IMG/VR virus record: IMGVR_UViG_3300031994_000086
Span: 1 to 64,000 of that record
From: a virus
Direction: 5' to 3' (one strand)
Length of the DNA: 64,000 bases
Positions 2,298 to 22,730 of the stretch are shown piece by piece. How positions within the stretch are numbered: position 1 is the stretch's first letter; every line of letters starts with the position of its first letter. A program made the position numbers and the translations under genes. The notes beneath the pieces are model-generated. The model was not told where the DNA came from. It did no database searches and saw only the letters and a program-made list of their open reading frames with translations.

Positions 2298-3434
2298 TTA
2301 TTCCTCTGCATCGCCGCCTAAAACATAATCAATAACCTTCCTGTTTGCTTCGTCAACCTTGCGTTGATTGAAGTCAACATACACACTCGTAATCTTAAAT
2401 CCGTTTGAGTGACCGAGAGCTGCTGCGATAGTCTCCATAGGGATATCCAGGGATGCAGCAATCGTTGCCCAAGTATGACGTGCATAATATGTTGTGATAT
2501 CTTTGCCAAATATCTTCAATATCTTGTTGGCTCTGCGCATCACATACATATAGTTGGAGTTTTCTCCATAAGAGAGGAGTTTTTTCTTTCCTCTATATCT
2601 GTTGATAATCTCCATCGCCTCAGGCTCTACCTTTACAGAATAGAGTCTACCCGTCTTACTTCTTCGGTATTCCAACCTGCCGTTTACTAACTGTTCAGGT
2701 GCCGCATTGAGAAGGTCAACGCTGTTTATGCCTATAAGATAGAACATAAGGACAAACAAATCCCTGTATTTGGATTGTGCGCTTGTCAGCTCCGTTTGCG
2801 AGATGATAAACCGTAGTTCTTCTATCGGAATGTTACGTTTTCTTGTCTCCTCAGAGGGGATGGAAAATTTGCGAAACGGGTAATTGTCCGTAAGGTCGTG
2901 TTTGATTGCCCAGTTCATTACAGAACGGATATTTCGCAGATGAATAGCCATAGAGTTGACCATCAGTTCATCATTACGCATAAAACGCACAAAATCTTCA
3001 AGCCACGTCACTGTTATATTCAATGAGGCGTGGCTATCAAAAGCATCAACCTTTCTCGATGTGGCTATATACATTTCTTTTGTACGTTTCGCCTTGCAAC
3101 TTTCTGAGTACATCATTATATATTCTGACAGAGATTTGTCAAACGCTCCTTTGCCGAATACCTTATCCATGATAAGCCTGCGAAGTTCGTCGTGTGGCAT
3201 CAGGGAGTTTTCAACGGCAATCTGCTCAATACGGTCAAGATATTCATTGAGTTTTATAGTCTTTGCCTTGTGATTACTCTCTGTGCGAGGGAACACACCG
3301 TCAGAGAAAACAGACTTGGTAAACAGACCAGTGTGTATGTAGAGCCTCTGAGGAGGTCGTGACACACAGACATATATAGGCATTGAGCCATCAGCACGTT
3401 TGCGTTGTTGATTTATAAACTGATATATTCTCAT
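2298..3434 (-). CDS. int: tyrosine site-specific integrase (phage integrase family)
   Basis: 378 aa; C-terminus 'ARHTWATIAASLDIPMETIAAALGHSNGFKITSVYVDF' matches the R...H-x-x-R...Y catalytic box II of tyrosine recombinases; lies beside a tRNA-like att core. Confidence 0.8.
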   Translation of the reverse strand: MRIYQFINQQRKRADGSMPIYVCVSRPPQRLYIHTGLFTKSVFSDGVFPRTESNHKAKTIKLNEYLDRIEQIAVENSLMPHDELRRLIMDKVFGKGAFDKSLSEYIMMYSESCKAKRTKEMYIATSRKVDAFDSHASLNITVTWLEDFVRFMRNDELMVNSMAIHLRNIRSVMNWAIKHDLTDNYPFRKFSIPSEETRKRNIPIEELRFIISQTELTSAQSKYRDLFVLMFYLIGINSVDLLNAAPEQLVNGRLEYRRSKTGRLYSVKVEPEAMEIINRYRGKKKLLSYGENSNYMYVMRRANKILKIFGKDITTYYARHTWATIAASLDIPMETIAAALGHSNGFKITSVYVDFNQRKVDEANRKVIDYVLGGDAEE

Positions 3435-8834: not shown

Positions 8835-9745
8835 CTATGGGAAAGAAATTCACGTTTTATCGCAGATGGTGGGATTATCTCTCTGAGTTTGACGATGATA
8901 TAAAGCTTGCATCATACGATGCTGTCTTTGCCTATATCTTTGAACACACAGAACCCGATAACGGTATTGTGAAAGCAATAACAAAACCAATCTTCTCTGA
9001 GATTGATAAGGAAGAAGAAAAGACGGAGGCACTAAGACAGAAGCGTAGCGAAGCAGGGAAAAAGCATAAGGGAAATCAACATACAAAGACTAAAAACGAT
9101 AAAAAATGGAACAAGTGTTCCAAAAATGGAACAAGTGTTCCAAAAATGGAACAAAATGGAACAAGTGTTCCAAATTTAGAGAAAAAAGAAACAACAAATA
9201 CGAAAGATAGTATAGAAAATTGGAACAAGTGTTCCAAAAATGGAACAAGTGTTCCAAAAACAAACGAAAGTGAAGAAAAAAATAAAACAAAAAAAGAAGA
9301 AATCCCCCCACACCCCCCTATAGAAGAAAAAAATAAAACAAAAAAAGAAGAAACAAACTATAATGCGTGCGAGAAAAAAAAATCGGACAGAGAAAAAAAT
9401 GAGAAATCTCTTAGAGAAAGGCAAGCCGCTTTTGCATCAGCCGTCCAGGCGCACGCAGAGAACTATGACGAAGCAATGCTCAGGGATTTTATAGACTACT
9501 GGACTGAGCCAAATAAGTCTTACTCTAAGATGCGCTTTGAACAGGAACGGACGTGGGAACTGAAACGCAGGCTTGACTATTGGGAAAGAAGAAGTAAACA
9601 ATTCAAACGTATAAGCTATGGCACCACAAACAGTAACGGATATATTGCACCAGAGTTACGTGCAACCCAAGAGCGAAGAGAACAAGAAGAACGTCTTGCA
9701 GTGCGTATCAGGCAACTTGCAGAGGAAGATGGAGGCGGTATGTAG
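8831..9745 (+). CDS. replisome-organizer-like replication initiator with internal iteron array
   Basis: 304 aa; N-terminus 'FTFYRRWWDYLSEFDDDIKLASYDAVFAYIF' resembles a phage replisome organizer N-domain; central K/N-rich low-complexity region is encoded by the iterons. Confidence 0.5.
   Translation: MTMGKKFTFYRRWWDYLSEFDDDIKLASYDAVFAYIFEHTEPDNGIVKAITKPIFSEIDKEEEKTEALRQKRSEAGKKHKGNQHTKTKNDKKWNKCSKNGTSVPKMEQNGTSVPNLEKKETTNTKDSIENWNKCSKNGTSVPKTNESEEKNKTKKEEIPPHPPIEEKNKTKKEETNYNACEKKKSDREKNEKSLRERQAAFASAVQAHAENYDEAMLRDFIDYWTEPNKSYSKMRFEQERTWELKRRLDYWERRSKQFKRISYGTTNSNGYIAPELRATQERREQEERLAVRIRQLAEEDGGGM
9101..9345 (+). repeat. candidate origin: 5 copies of inverted-repeat iteron 'aaaatGGAACAagTGTTCCaaa' plus duplicated A-rich block
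   Basis: Copies start at 9108, 9128, 9158, 9222 and 9242, with a half copy at 9147; 20-30 bp phasing; 'gaagaaaaaaataaaacaaaaaaagaagaaa' occurs twice at about 9283-9350. Confidence 0.5.
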
Positions 9746-19736: not shown

Positions 19737-20810
19737 ATGGAAATGCAGACGTTTAATGTAGGCGACAAGGAGTGCGTGGCACTTGTGAGGAAACTGACAC
19801 CTCGTGAATGTTTCCGTCTTATGGGCGTATCTGACACCGATATAGATAAGATACAAGATGCAGATGTCAGCGTGTCGGCACAATACAAACTCGCTGGTAA
19901 CAGTATCGTGGTTGACGTGCTTTACCACATCTTCCGTAAGGCTTTCGTCAATCGTGGCAATGACACAAGGCAGATGACTATCTTTGATGCTTGTGCAGAA
20001 CAAAACGAGATGGAGTACACACACGGCAATCCGCTACGAGTTGTAACGCTTTGCTCTGGGTATGACAGTCAGTGCCTGGCACTTGAAAGATTAAAAGCGG
20101 ACTACCCACCGTTTGATTATGAGCTGATAGCGTGGAGTGAGATAGAACCTGCCGCCTGTAAGGCACACGATGCACTGTTTCCTCAGTGGGCAGACAGAAA
20201 CCTTGGCGATATGACGAAGATTGACTGGAACAACGTACCCGATTTTAACCTTCTGTTTTACAGTATTCCTTGCACGGATATTTCTCAAAGCGGAAAACAA
20301 GCAGGCTTTACTGAGGGTAGCGGCACTCGCAGCTCTATCATCTGGAATGTGCGTGATGCGCTGATGATTAAGAAACCTAAATACGCTTGTCTGGAGAACG
20401 TGGCGGCAATGGTAAGTCAGAAATTCCTTCCGATGTTCAACCTTTGGCAGAACGAGGTAATGCGGTTAGGTTATACCAACTTCGCAAAGCTGCTCAACGC
20501 AAAGGACTACGGAGTACCGCAGAACAGAGAACGTATATTCCTGTGGTCTGTGCTCAACGAGGGCAAGGACGTGAACTATTACTTTCCGCAGCCGATACCG
20601 TTGACTAAGACGCTGAAAGACATCCTTGAAGATGAGGTTGACACACGTTTCTATCTCAATCCTGGGAGGGTGCAGGAGTTTGTTCGTGACAACATAGACA
20701 AGGTTACACAATATGCTAACGATGGTATTGGCGAGATAGAGCCGATGCCCAATAGGCTGAGGGAATGGGTAGAGAATTATGAGAAGAAATGTATCACCAC
20801 AGACAAGTGA
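19737..20810 (+). CDS. DNA (cytosine-5)-methyltransferase with circularly permuted motif order (IX-X-I-IV-VI-VIII-TRD)
   Basis: N-terminus 'TPRECFRLMGVSD' (motif IX) and 'AGNSIVVDV' (motif X); then 'VTLCSGYDSQ' (I), 'PCTDIS' (IV), 'ENV' (VI), 'QNRERIF' (VIII). Confidence 0.65.
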   Translation: MEMQTFNVGDKECVALVRKLTPRECFRLMGVSDTDIDKIQDADVSVSAQYKLAGNSIVVDVLYHIFRKAFVNRGNDTRQMTIFDACAEQNEMEYTHGNPLRVVTLCSGYDSQCLALERLKADYPPFDYELIAWSEIEPAACKAHDALFPQWADRNLGDMTKIDWNNVPDFNLLFYSIPCTDISQSGKQAGFTEGSGTRSSIIWNVRDALMIKKPKYACLENVAAMVSQKFLPMFNLWQNEVMRLGYTNFAKLLNAKDYGVPQNRERIFLWSVLNEGKDVNYYFPQPIPLTKTLKDILEDEVDTRFYLNPGRVQEFVRDNIDKVTQYANDGIGEIEPMPNRLREWVENYEKKCITTDK

Positions 20811-20879
20811 CGGTTGTATTCCTGCGCTGACTACAAGGTATGAGGCGATGGGAGTGACAAATATCATAGACACAGGTCA

Positions 20880-21700
20880 TTACCCAAGGGGGGGGGGTAA
20901 TAGAGTATTATGAAATCAGTAATTAACCAAACGGCAGATAAAAACTGCAGAACCTTGTGCTCACACTACCACAAGGCAGGTGTGACGGATTTCCTGCCTA
21001 TCAGGGGGGGCAGTAGAGAACTAGAAACCGTAATAGTAGAGATTTATGAGAACAAACGTAGTAGCAAACCTGATGTTCCATCCGTATGACACGATGTTTG
21101 AACAGTCAAGGCGTGTGTACGGTGTCAACGCACTCGCTCCTGCAATGCACACAGTAGGGGGGGGTAACTTAGAACCAAAGATAATAGTGGTATATGAGAC
21201 AGACAATATTCGGGTGGTCGAGGGATAGCAGGGGAGTAGTCACGGACAGACACCCCGTCACGGTGTGCAACTGCATCACCGTAGGTATGCGAGACAACAC
21301 CACACCTTATGTAGTAACGGTATATGAGAACTAAGAACAAGACACTTGTATTAGGGGGTGGGTACGCAGGACTATCAGAGGGGTATGGTAATGTGCTTAT
21401 TATAGGACTGATGAGAACCCTGAGCGTGAACACCGCCTATCCGTTTGTTGCACTGATTTATGAGAACAATAATTGTAAGAAATATGATACAGACAAAACA
21501 ATGCCGCAGTTGTGGAAGGGTGCTGCCACTGACAGAGTACGGTATCAACAGAGCCAAGAATGACGGCTACCAGATATACTGCAAGGAGTGCACCAACATC
21601 AAAAGACGAGAATACAGAGATAGCGTAAGACGCAGGGAAAGGCTAAGGATGTATGAGAGAAAGATTGCAAGATAATAGAAATGTATAATAATTAAAAATC
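20880..21700 (+). repeat. degenerate tandem array (about 130-150 bp units) carrying poly-G tracts (G10, G7, G8, G5TG3) and overlapping small ORFs joined by 'tTATGAGAAC'
   Basis: G10 at 20888-20897, G7 at 21004-21010, G8 at 21157-21164; 'tatgaga[ac]' at 21045, 21193, 21321 and 21458; stem TTACCC/GGGTAA flanks the G10 tract. Confidence 0.5.
21460..21675 (+). CDS. basic zinc-ribbon small protein (CxxC...CxxC)
   Basis: 'CRSCGRV...CKEC' followed by an R/K-rich tail. Confidence 0.35.
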   Translation: MRTIIVRNMIQTKQCRSCGRVLPLTEYGINRAKNDGYQIYCKECTNIKRREYRDSVRRRERLRMYERKIAR

Positions 21701-21708
21701 AAAAAAAC

Positions 21709-22143
21709 ATGAAAACGTATTTTGAAGTCGGCATCCGCTACGACAAGACAATGGAGGACGGCAGCGTCCGCAAGGTAACAGAGAACTATCTCTTGGACGC
21801 ACTAACCTTCACTGAGGCAGAGGCGAGAGTGACAGAGGAAATGACTGCCTATATCAGTGGTGATATGCAGGTGGTGACGGAGAAGATAACCAACATCGCT
21901 GAGGTAGTCACCACGGAAGATGCAGAAGCGGACAAGTACTACAAGGTAAAGCACAGCATCCTCACCATAGATGAGAGGTCTGGCAAGGAAAAGAAACAGG
22001 CGCAGTACGTCATTATCCAGGCTGTAAGTGTTGATGATGCGAGGAAACGCTATGAGCAGTACATCAAAGGCAGCATGATGGACTTGATACTGGAGGCTGT
22101 CAGCGAGACAAAGTATGTAGATTATTTCCCTTACAACGAATGA
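21709..22143 (+). CDS. DUF4494-like protein
   Basis: 'MKTYFEVGIRYDKTMEDGSVRKVTENYLLDALTFTEAEARV' resembles the Bacteroidales DUF4494 N-terminus. Confidence 0.4.
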   Translation: MKTYFEVGIRYDKTMEDGSVRKVTENYLLDALTFTEAEARVTEEMTAYISGDMQVVTEKITNIAEVVTTEDAEADKYYKVKHSILTIDERSGKEKKQAQYVIIQAVSVDDARKRYEQYIKGSMMDLILEAVSETKYVDYFPYNE

Positions 22144-22730
22144 AAGACTGGAAGGGAAATACTAACTCTGTGTTCAAAATCATTGGTGCAAGTAATCACG
22201 CAGACCACGAAAGGGAAAAGCGTGATTACTATGCCACCGAGCCAAAGGCAGCTGAAATGCTCCTTGAACTTGAACAGTTTGCATCACATATCCTGGAGCC
22301 GTGTTGCGGAGCAGGACACCTCGCCAATGTGTTAAAGGATGCAGGCTACAAAGTGGAGTGTAATGACATCATAGACAGAGGATGCAACGATACCACAAGC
22401 GACTATCTCACACGCACAGAAGAATGGCAGGGCGACATCATTACCAATCCCCCATACTCTAAAGCACAGGAGTTCGTGGAGAAGTCACTCTCACTTGTCA
22501 GCGATGGCAACAAGGTGGCGATGTTCCTGAAACTCACGTTCCTTGAAGGAAAGAAACGCAGGACACTGTTTGATGAACACCCACCGAGACGTATATGGGT
22601 AAGCAGCTCACGACTGAAATGCGCAATAAACGGAGACTTTGGCAATACAGGCACCAGTGCTACCGCCTATGCGTGGTATGTGTGGGAGAAAGGCTACAAG
22701 GGTAGTCCAGAGATAAGATGGTTTAACTAA
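22140..22730 (+). CDS. N6-adenine (or N4-cytosine) DNA methyltransferase, NPPY class
   Basis: 'ILEPCCGAGHLA' (SAM motif I) precedes 'DIITNPPYS' (motif IV). Confidence 0.6.
   Translation: MKDWKGNTNSVFKIIGASNHADHEREKRDYYATEPKAAEMLLELEQFASHILEPCCGAGHLANVLKDAGYKVECNDIIDRGCNDTTSDYLTRTEEWQGDIITNPPYSKAQEFVEKSLSLVSDGNKVAMFLKLTFLEGKKRRTLFDEHPPRRIWVSSSRLKCAINGDFGNTGTSATAYAWYVWEKGYKGSPEIRWFN

Follow-up and report, generated by a model that had tools for sequence, protein, structure and literature searches.

Staggered small reading frames in a phage genome as probable target-recognition cassettes of a TRD-less permuted C5-cytosine methyltransferase core

We analyzed a 64,000-nucleotide stretch of viral DNA (positions 1 to 64,000 of IMG/VR record IMGVR_UViG_3300031994_000086, hereafter "the window"), in which positions 20779-21464 probably form an array of target-recognition domain (TRD) cassettes serving an adjacent, permuted and TRD-less C5-cytosine methyltransferase core. 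Judged from their sequence, the small open reading frames (ORFs) of this array are C5-methyltransferase TRDs that would functionally belong to the neighboring Dcm gene. These units lie head-to-tail in staggered frames, with the Tyr-Glu codons (TAT GAR) that close the last beta-strand of one unit holding the ATG of the next. Their recognition loops contain G or C tracts, placed in Gly or Pro codons, whose length determines whether an individual unit is in frame. No earlier account of such a staggered TRD-array layout was found in the literature.

Results

A permuted catalytic core without a TRD

The core (19737-20810, + strand) encodes 357 amino acids (aa) with motifs in the order IX-X-I-VIII: IX (RKLTPRE) and X (GNSIVV) at aa 18-58 are N-terminal to motif I (TLCSGYDS, aa 104-110), followed by IV (PCTDIS), VI (ENV) and VIII (QNRER). 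It matches Pfam PF00145 with E=7.7e-50, aa 101-314 covering profile positions 2-211 and leaving the TRD part of the profile uncovered. An AF2 model of the core (pLDDT 85.5) had M.HhaI as its best Foldseek match (E=8.5e-15, 211 columns), and the TRD segment of M.HhaI (~residues 202-270) had no counterpart in the core. The polypeptide begins ~17 aa ahead of motif IX, so that no N-terminal TRD is kept, and ends in ...REWVENYEKKCITTDK followed by a stop. Motifs I, IV, VI, VIII, IX and X and the fold are thus those of a C5-cytosine DNA methyltransferase, while a TRD on the same polypeptide is absent. This is a property of the core family, as >100 homologues stop at the same place without a TRD (...LRxWxxxYxx, then stop). 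Some more distant relatives (L017-L036) carry an N-terminal TRD. Two database matches were set aside: a match of Bacillus phage Deep Blue to the IX-X-I-VIII core corresponds to two tandem full-length methylases rather than a permuted core, and a weak match to Dulem virus 40 in INPHARED corresponds to two ordinary methylase genes.

Five TRD-like units downstream of the core

The preliminary description, made from the letters of the DNA, had proposed a small-protein array; this fits the comparative data, although the identity of the proteins as TRDs had been missed. Five TRD-like units follow the one core, the tandem-TRD arrangement of multispecific methylases. U1 (MRRNVSPQTSDGCIPALTTRYEAMGVTNIIDTGHYPRGG..., 20779-20913, + strand) has homologues in 42 loci, either stand-alone or in frame. 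U2 (MKSVINQTADKNCRTLCSHYHKAGVTDFLPIRGGSRELETVIVEIYE then a tail, 20910-21089, + strand) is intact, with stand-alone and in-frame homologues in 8 loci. U3 (MRTNVVANLMFHPYDTMFEQSRRVYGVNALAPAMHTVGGGNLEPKIIVVYE then a tail, 21046-21228, + strand) is likewise intact and, in a search of 1.84 billion representatives, had 141 homologues at E<1e-3, some of them stand-alone proteins of 44-70 aa and others segments that PF00145 methylases repeat in frame before IX-X. U4 (MRQTIFGWSRDSRGVVTDRHPVTVCNCITVGMRDNTTPYVVTVYEN then a stop, 21194-21334, + strand) contains no homopolymer tract, and 21 loci have homologues of it, some standing alone and some in frame; in relative L096, a U4-type TRD lies in frame with another TRD between motifs VIII and IX. 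U5 (MRTKNKTLVLGGGYAGLSEGYGNVLIIGLMRTLSVNTAYPFVALIYE, 21324-21464, + strand), whose ORF continues to 21563, is known only from the closest relatives. More generally, homologues of the units are of two kinds, ORFs of 44-70 aa that stand alone and repeats read in frame within multi-TRD methylases. A word-indexed protein search with U4 and a tblastn search of phage records with U3 returned no match, and a re-permuted core+U3 chimera modeled by single-sequence AF2 (no alignment) had a pLDDT of 33, too low to be informative.

A small zinc-ribbon ORF (CxxC...CxxC; 21460-21675, + strand) closes the array in this lineage, with weak Pfam matches to Stc1 and Zn_ribbon; its true start is likely the ATG at 21484 (MIQTKQC...). 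It is kept in L004, L168, L252 and L253 with a dN/dS of 0.14; L249 and more distant arrays lack it.

The units are genuine TRD coding sequences under purifying selection in their own frames. For U1, U3 and U5, dN/dS in the unit frame was 0.35, 0.16 and 0.02, respectively (for U5, 1 non-synonymous versus 11 synonymous differences), compared to 0.5-3.9 in the other two frames.

Junctions place each unit in a new frame

The small ORFs begin at 20779, 20910, 21046, 21194, 21324 and 21460 on the + strand and, as previously described, change frame from one to the next (0, 1, 0, 1, 2, 0), with stops after each unit. The staggered ORFs and their TATGAGAAC junctions are present in the sequence, and every ~130-148 bp a junction encodes (I/V)YE(N/T), with M-R-(T/Q) in the frame shifted by +1. 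Units end in hhxhYE. Read in the +1 frame, the TAT-GAR codons supply the ATG of the following unit, and the remaining frame has a TGA. Across the window, TATGAGAA was counted 14 times, with 3.4 expected, and 4 of these occurrences lie within 700 bp at the array. The tandem series reported earlier is periodic at the level of protein and junctions but not of DNA, where Tandem Repeats Finder (TRF) detected no tandem repeat at the units. The first junction (20778-20786, + strand) lies at the core C-terminus itself: TAT GAG AAG encodes Y-E-K, and the embedded ATG at 20779 opens U1 in the +1 frame, an arrangement also present in L004 and L168. Across strictly defined arrays, the junction Tyr codon is TAT in 39/39 cases versus 58% in the background; the sole exception noted by eye, a TAC, is found in L012, whose final TRD reads on in frame into IX-X. 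The start context of unit ATGs is the usual one for this phage, with no Shine-Dalgarno sequence, T at -1 and A at +4.

Junctions this conserved could also join all units into one polypeptide, with a +1 shift or recoding event at every TATGAR yielding a covalent multi-TRD methylase like those of SPR and phi3T. We consider this unlikely. It would agree with the existence of in-frame multi-TRD relatives (P0126, P0125, P0133 and L096) and with engineering results, in which class J permutants of M.MpeI and M.SssI split into [IX-X-I-VIII] and [TRD alone], an exact analogue of the present layout, were inactive, the free TRD failing to complement the permuted core (PMC5944983). Sequence inspection of the junction (hhx-h-UAU-GAR), however, identified no X XXY YYZ heptamer of a programmed frameshift site and no other slippery or hungry codon: AUG offers no re-pairing for a tRNA-Tyr positioned on UAU, and the Glu codons GAA and GAG are common in this phage. 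Frameshifting has no need for an ATG, yet the ATG is invariant; stops lie 1-11 codons beyond YE; and up to 9-12 consecutive shifts would be required. In arrays of canonical order, a tract-broken unit would moreover abort translation before IX-X, and broken units are common nonetheless. Recombination between junction repeats, fusing the core to a chosen TRD, was rejected because a crossover keeps the YE frame and reads into short nonsense tails, and translational bypassing between identical YE codons was rejected on the same grounds.

Related arrays in other phages

The same staggered layout was found in dozens of phage contigs. A junction scan identified + strand arrays in 40 of 248 loci, while the minus-strand control gave 4 arrays. 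Some arrays follow the canonical order, from an I-VIII ORF through TRD ORFs to an IX-X ORF. This is the case in L183 and L189, where I-VIII and IX-X are encoded by two separate ORFs with 8-10 complete ORFs between them. Each of these 8-10 has the form M(K/R)...hhxhYE, with 2-4 further residues before its stop. Comparison with related genomes, which the preliminary description had suggested as a check, revealed that whole cassettes are gained or lost at the junctions and that tract lengths vary. Array evolution proceeds by cassette gain, loss and replacement at YE/ATG junctions; U4, for instance, is missing as a clean cassette in L004 and L168. Flank-anchored pattern scans of IMG/VR found no near-identical DNA, and INPHARED contained no close relative.

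Homopolymer tracts and the state of individual units

All four tracts noted in the preliminary description are present: G10 (20888-20897), G7 (21004-21010), G8 (21157-21164) and the interrupted tract GGGGGTGGG at 21354, located in U1, U2, U3 and U5, respectively. Apart from G10, G7 and G8, the whole 64 kb contains no G or C run ≥7. Since GGG is an otherwise avoided codon, used for 6.1% of Gly residues in long ORFs, and GGGGGG encodes none of 75 Gly-Gly pairs, these in-coding homopolymers are locally over-represented relative to codon usage, as at contingency loci. The same local enrichment holds more broadly, with 2.1 G runs ≥7 per kb in arrays versus 0.38 per kb in flanks. Tracts are retained at homologous sites in arrays only 61-82% identical.

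Tract 1 (+ strand) lies in Gly-Gly codons of U1 at an out-of-frame length: because G10 shifts the frame, U1 ends early (...GGGNRVL, then a TGA overlapping the ATG of U2), while with a 9-nt tract it would read ...GGVIEYYEISN up to a restored stop at 20924-20926. In relatives with 9 nt at this position, U1 is intact. The state predicted from the frames of this genome is therefore U1 OFF (G10), with U2 (G7), U3 (G8), U4 and U5 ON. A further mechanism proposed earlier, by which a change of -1 or +2 nt in G7 would fuse the ORF at 20910 to that at 21046, proved wrong, as translation in that frame would meet four stops after the tract before reaching 21046 (LSGGAVEN-stop-KP-stop-stop-stop-RFMRTNV).

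Across nine close relatives from different samples and assemblers, tract lengths were 9 or 10, 7 to 9, and 7 or 8, for tracts 1, 2 and 3. Tract 1 is G10 in the window, L167 and L253, G9 in L249-L252, G7TG in L004 and TG8 in L168. Tract 2 is G7, G8 or G9 in relatives, L004 and L254 differing only by G8 versus G7, and spacers of 20, 26 and 23 nt between fixed flanks leave U2 in frame while 25, 13 and 15 nt put it out of frame. Tract 3, G8 in the window, is G7 and out of frame in L168. Tract length thus differs between close relatives and switches the frame, a second feature of contingency loci. In an automatic scan, 7 of 20 units with runs ≥7 were intact, compared to 29 of 39 without (Fisher p=0.005), in line with such switching. 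The earlier proposal of a phase-variable array driven by homopolymers fits these lengths among near-identical relatives, although the comparison is one of consensus sequences between assemblies, and part of the differences could be homopolymer consensus errors.

Could the array instead be the remnant of an in-frame multi-TRD methylase, broken by frameshift mutations or homopolymer errors and accompanied by an inactive relic of a core? Homopolymers are error-prone in sequencing, and of the units that bear a tract, around two thirds are out of frame. The automatic scan called 10 of the 39 tract-free intervals broken, which may reflect crude junction calling or could indicate decay. Nevertheless, decay or artefact appears improbable as an account of the array. 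The +1 stagger occurs at the junctions and not at the tracts, and is seen in the clean, intact and tract-free arrays of L183 and L189. Purifying selection is strong on the core as well as on the units, and catalytic motifs are invariant across 17 aligned core homologues (59-92% identity). At the consensus level, the independent assembly L167, identical to the window over 6.4 kb, reproduces G10, G7 and G8 exactly, and G10 recurs in the diverged L253. Finally, flanking genes on the same contigs are free of frameshifts.

RNA polymerase and ribosomes slip on long homopolymers, and the tracts might accordingly be hard-wired expression devices, in which transcriptional slippage or ribosomal frameshifting gives a constant low level of in-frame product at any length. 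The frequency of out-of-frame lengths would fit such devices. Against this, homologous tracts vary in length with offsets in both directions and no single conserved offset, and a tract can be interrupted or lost with the unit still in frame (G7TG in L004, TG8 in L168, and L189, which has no tracts at all). We therefore regard constant slippage as very improbable.

A role of the region as a packaging or replication signal, also raised in the preliminary description, found no support. The units are selected as protein, Rfam searches gave no match down to E=1, and no promoter or terminator enrichment was found. The TTACCC/GGGTAA hairpin reported around G10 does exist (-9.3 kcal/mol), but 34 of 200 shuffled sequences fold as well (z = -0.99), so that it is not significant. 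The ideas of a G-quadruplex or packaging signal were set aside, the tracts being 116-197 nt apart and within constrained codons.

Discussion

Overall, the reading we favor, and consider reasonably probable, is that stand-alone TRD subunits are supplied in trans and carry homopolymer contingency switches. Separate ORFs with their own ATGs are, at the sequence level, compatible with a split (multi-subunit) C5-methyltransferase; the inactivity of the engineered split permutants of M.MpeI and M.SssI counts against a supply in trans. Translation of each unit would start at its own ATG and yield a subunit of 45-60 aa that docks non-covalently on the core. Docking would probably involve strand complementation, the hhxhYE strand at the unit's C-terminus pairing with the N-terminal hairpin of the core before motif IX. 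With freely docking units, one catalytic core would then methylate several sequence motifs, being multispecific through exchangeable specificity subunits. Slipped-strand changes in the tracts would switch single specificities ON or OFF in the phage population, as a form of bet-hedging between hosts with methylation-sensitive and hosts with methylation-dependent restriction.

Several known systems share parts of this organization. The methylases of Bacillus phages SPR, phi3T, rho11s and H2 are likewise phage C5-methylases with several tandem TRDs of ~40-50 aa, each presumably conferring one specificity, and TRD types homologous to those of the array occur in frame in multi-TRD proteins of this study. 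In the Bacillus phage enzymes, however, all TRDs share a single frame and polypeptide, between motifs VIII and IX, whereas here each TRD has its own ORF and ATG in a shifted frame, the catalytic part is without a TRD, and many TRDs contain homopolymer tracts.

The small subunit of M.EcoHK31I is encoded in an overlapping alternative frame, reportedly described by Lee and co-workers in 1995. M.AquI and M.EcoHK31I resemble the proposed system in that the enzyme is assembled from separately translated pieces, and as natural two-polypeptide C5-methylases they provide a precedent for it (PMC3404938). Their TRDs remain joined to conserved motifs, part of the TRD to IX-X in the case of M.AquI and the TRD to the large subunit in that of M.EcoHK31I, whereas here the TRDs are encoded apart from such motifs; unlike here, both enzymes have one fixed partner, no array and no switching.

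The permuted M.BssHII, M.Alw26I, M2.Eco31I, M.Esp3I and M2.BsaI also have IX-X before I and a break in the variable region, and known natural permuted cases appear to be mostly type H (TRD-IX-X-I...VIII), with the TRD retained (PMC5944983). Here, unlike in type H, the break separates the TRD from motif IX (class J-like), and the polypeptide has lost its TRD.

In Type III mod and Type I hsdS/hsdM phasevarions, as in the poly-G genes of Campylobacter, Helicobacter and Neisseria, in-coding tracts are similarly over-represented locally, differ between relatives and switch the frame. Phasevarions are bacterial and chromosomal and switch a whole enzyme or HsdS, whereas the array would switch a phage C5-methylase per recognition module. 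Type I HsdS follows the same logic of a separate, exchangeable specificity polypeptide with a common catalytic methylase, but it has an unrelated fold, with two TRDs in each HsdS, and serves an unrelated chemistry (N6-adenine or N4-cytosine), and its known variation stems from recombination shufflons or simple sequence repeats (SSRs) in a single hsdS, rather than from arrays of overlapping 45-60 aa ORFs.

We propose, more tentatively and at slightly less than an even chance, that these loci encode an undescribed Type I-like C5 methylase. It would combine a constant catalytic module, made of one permuted or two polypeptides, with an array of separately translated, exchangeable TRD subunits of 45-60 aa, encoded by self-propagating overlapping-frame cassettes (YE/ATG/TGA) of which many are phase-switched by poly-G or poly-C. 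With TRD subunits individually phase-switched, phage populations would as a consequence hold a combinatorial and stochastically varying methylation repertoire, and a phage may in this way vary the methylated sites of its DNA to escape host restriction.

Should the units act in trans, the system would be, to our knowledge, the first natural C5-methylase with a free, swappable mini-subunit for specificity. It would constitute a compact natural kit to retarget cytosine methylation, with one core and many 50-aa adaptors, and a counter-example to the failed engineering of this same split. If the tracts switch, the arrays would represent phase variation of anti-restriction specificity inside a virus, and phage populations would hedge between hosts restricting unmethylated DNA and hosts restricting methylated DNA. 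Current annotation renders such arrays as a "Dcm" gene with unannotated space or hypothetical mini-ORFs behind it, and for gut and rumen phages of this kind the methylation motifs would not be predictable from the methylase gene alone.

A permuted methyltransferase core without a target-recognition domain

The region at 20880-21700, which a preliminary description had read as a poly-G array with overlapping small ORFs, lies directly 3′ of a 357-aa + strand ORF (19737-20810; hereafter the core). The small + strand ORFs are present, starting at 20779, 20910, 21046, 21194, 21324, and 21460 (frames 1, 0, 1, 2, 0, and 1), and the first five are referred to here as target-recognition domain (TRD) or TRD-like units U1 to U5. 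The core is a C5-cytosine methyltransferase whose motifs are circularly permuted and run in the order IX (RKLTPRE), X (GNSIVV), I, IV (PC), VI (ENV), and VIII (QNRER). Its residues 101-314 match positions 2-211 of the Pfam profile PF00145, the parts of M.HhaI before residue 201 and after residue 271 can be aligned to it while the TRD segment has no counterpart, and its AF2 model (53-sequence alignment) is confident (pLDDT 85.5), with M.HhaI, M.MpeI, and M.HaeIII as top structural matches. Taken together, this shows that the core lacks a TRD. More than 100 homologues (56-92% identity) share the same end (...IEPLPxxLRxWxxxYxx*) and also lack the TRD.

Natural permuted C5-methylases appear to be mostly of type H, with the TRD retained (PMC5944983), which makes the permutation point of this core unusual. 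Related permuted methylases on IMG/VR contigs (L017-L036) have a U4-type TRD in frame and N-terminal to motifs IX-X (around positions 3282-3389 in each locus), an arrangement that represents the classical type H permutation. Both permutation points are therefore present within one wider family. In Bacillus phage Deep Blue (L248; NC_031056.1, 72150-77947), three DNA methyltransferase genes are annotated consecutively, and the end of one methylase gene and the start of the next imitate the permuted core in tblastn searches, which suggests that the permuted fusion could arise from such tandem genes. Inteins (Pfam Hint, Intein_splicing, LAGLIDADG) interrupt the catalytic domain in the relative loci L249, L250, and L252, whose core ORFs are 711-726 aa long, and likewise occur in four close homologous proteins of the core (P0025, P0042, P0102, and P0120).

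Staggered units under selection

TRD hallmarks are apparent in the small ORFs: dipeptides (TL or APxM), a loop rich in Gly, and a hydrophobic strand at the end. For U3 (21046-21228), 141 homologues (E<1e-3) were found among 1.84 billion representatives, some of them stand-alone proteins of 44-70 aa and others segments in 2-5 in-frame repeats within larger proteins, several of which include PF00145 and end with motifs IX-X. Homologues of U1, U2, and U4 were detected in 42, 8, and 21 of the fetched loci, respectively, and one of these (L096) has two TRDs, one of them U4-type, placed in frame between motif VIII and motif IX. In their own frames, U3 and U1 displayed dN/dS ratios of 0.16 and 0.35, and U5 one of 0.02 (1 non-synonymous vs 11 synonymous changes), values comparable to those of the core (0.06-0.14), vs 0.5-3.9 in the other two frames; this pattern points to purifying selection acting on the units in their own frames. 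The units are TRD coding sequences that are kept by selection and whose start codons are conserved, and they would provide the TRD missing from the core.

Each new ATG is held, as first described, in the TAT-GAG of the ...(I/V)YE(N/T) that ends the preceding ORF. Only 5 of 71 long-ORF starts in the window have a Shine-Dalgarno sequence; T at -1 occurs in 63% and A at +4 is preferred, a Bacteroidota-like start context, and both features are found at every unit ATG. The window has 14 copies of TATGAGAA vs 3.4 expected, including 4 within 700 bp at the array, where TRF detected no DNA-level tandem repeat and Rfam no RNA family.

Arrays of the same kind lie 3′ of permuted cores in L004 (92% identity), L168 (96%), L005 (69%), L007 (63%), L087 (62%), and L089 (56%). 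Scanning 248 loci for at least three junctions (hhxhY[E/D] encoded with TA[TC]GAN) yielded + strand arrays in 40 loci, vs 4 arrays in the minus-strand control. In strictly defined arrays, the junction Tyr codon was TAT in 39 of 39 cases vs 58% in the background; a single TAC was noticed, in L012, whose last TRD runs in frame into motifs IX-X with no need of a start codon. A canonical-order version (L055, L040, L012, L183, and L189) consists of a motif I-VIII ORF, staggered TRD ORFs, and a separate IX-X ORF that also starts from a junction ATG. Since L183 and L189 contain 8-10 intact units, each M(K/R)...hhxhYE plus 2-4 residues and a stop, with almost no homopolymers, staggering is a property of the system and not a by-product of the tracts.

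We infer that each unit would be translated separately and complete the small domain of the core in trans. The main rival, in which +1 recoding fuses the units at every junction, is rated lower: the junction has no slippery or slow codon, its ATG is invariant although frameshifting would need none, many successive shifts would be required, and a single tract-broken unit in a canonical-order array would block synthesis of IX-X.

Exchange of units between relatives

Among relatives with cores at least 90% identical, the series of units varies by clean insertion, deletion, and replacement at junctions. The window carries U1-U5 followed by a zinc-ribbon ORF (CxxC...CxxC; 21484-21675, + strand); L004 lacks U4 and has one extra unit, L168 has only U1-U3, L249 has a different second unit and two extra units, and L252 has two other units inserted. 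In L254 (1006-1653), a NUMOD4-type homing-endonuclease gene replaces most of U1, leaving only its ...GGVIEYYENSN tail. The junctions share 8-10 nt, and exchange there leaves the YE on the upstream side as well as the ATG on the downstream side intact. In this lineage the zinc-ribbon ORF is the last of the array; its dN/dS of 0.14 indicates purifying selection, and it is absent from L249 and from distant arrays; weakly similar ORFs occur at other places in L007 and L130.

The second gene downstream of the array, which follows a DUF4494 gene, is a 196-aa ORF (22140-22730, + strand) that contains the motif DIITNPPY and weakly matches a Dam-family Pfam profile (E=3.8e-4, below cut-off); it probably encodes a second methyltransferase, one for N6-adenine. 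Farther upstream, 9102-9265 holds an array of the 20-bp unit AAAAATGGAACAAGTGTTCC with palindrome GGAACA..TGTTCC, arranged as two blocks with 2-4 near-perfect copies; six runs of A7-A9 come after it and extend to about 9400. This array resembles iterons or operator sites, and is possibly an origin or regulatory region.

Homopolymer tracts and reading frame

G10 (20888, in U1), G7 (21004, in U2), G8 (21157, in U3), and GGGGGTGGG (21354) were all found in the sequence as reported. G10, G7, and G8 are the only G/C runs of at least 7 nt in the whole 64-kb window, GGG makes up only 6.1% of Gly codons in its long ORFs, and none of their 75 Gly-Gly pairs uses GGGGGG, which places these tracts far from chance. 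Two proposals of the preliminary description did not hold: the G10 hairpin is at best equal to shuffled sequence (z = -0.99), and no change of G7 can fuse the ORF at 20910 to that at 21046, since the frame of the latter has four stops between them.

Tract lengths were compared, anchored on fixed flanks, across nine close relatives of the array from different samples and assemblers. One of these, L167, shows no difference from the window along 6.4 kb, and G10, G7, and G8 are all reproduced in it. At the first tract, G10 truncates U1 in the window, L167, and L253 (...GGGNRVL*, whose TGA overlaps the next ATG), vs 9 nt and an intact U1 in L249-L252 (G9, ...GGVIEYYE), L004 (G7TG), and L168 (TG8). 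At the second, spacers of 20, 26, and 23 nt are in frame (window, L004, and L252) and spacers of 25, 13, and 15 nt out of frame (L254, L253, and L168), L004 and L254 differing solely by G8 vs G7. At the third, G8 keeps U3 in frame in the window, L167, L253, L004, L252, and L254, and G7 puts it out of frame in L168. For single units in all arrays, 7 of 20 with a G/C run of at least 7 nt (about one third) were intact vs 29 of 39 without (Fisher p=0.005). Arrays only 61-82% identical have G/C tracts at homologous codons with varying lengths (G8/G9, C7-C10, G8-G12). These alignments show tracts that switch the reading frame between relatives and have, in comparative data, the hallmark of hypermutable contingency tracts. 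The staggering and the broken frames are unlikely to stem from decay or sequencing artefact, given that core and units are under selection, that clean arrays exist, and that tract lengths are reproducible.

A candidate modular methyltransferase system

Natural two-polypeptide C5-methylases, M.AquI and M.EcoHK31I, provide a precedent for assembly in trans (PMC3404938). However, class J permutants of M.MpeI and M.SssI split into [IX-X-I-VIII] and [TRD] gave inactive pairs (PMC5944983), which is important counter-evidence. If units do act in trans, one core would thereby gain several specificities, and tract slippage may switch single specificities on or off. In full-text literature searches, neither arrays of staggered, stand-alone TRDs nor phage TRDs switched by homopolymers were found to have been described. 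The components are of known kinds, namely multispecific, split, and permuted methylases (the first from phages) and SSR phase variation. Their combination and the cassette format appear new, and there is a substantial chance that this modular methyltransferase system is of a genuinely new type.
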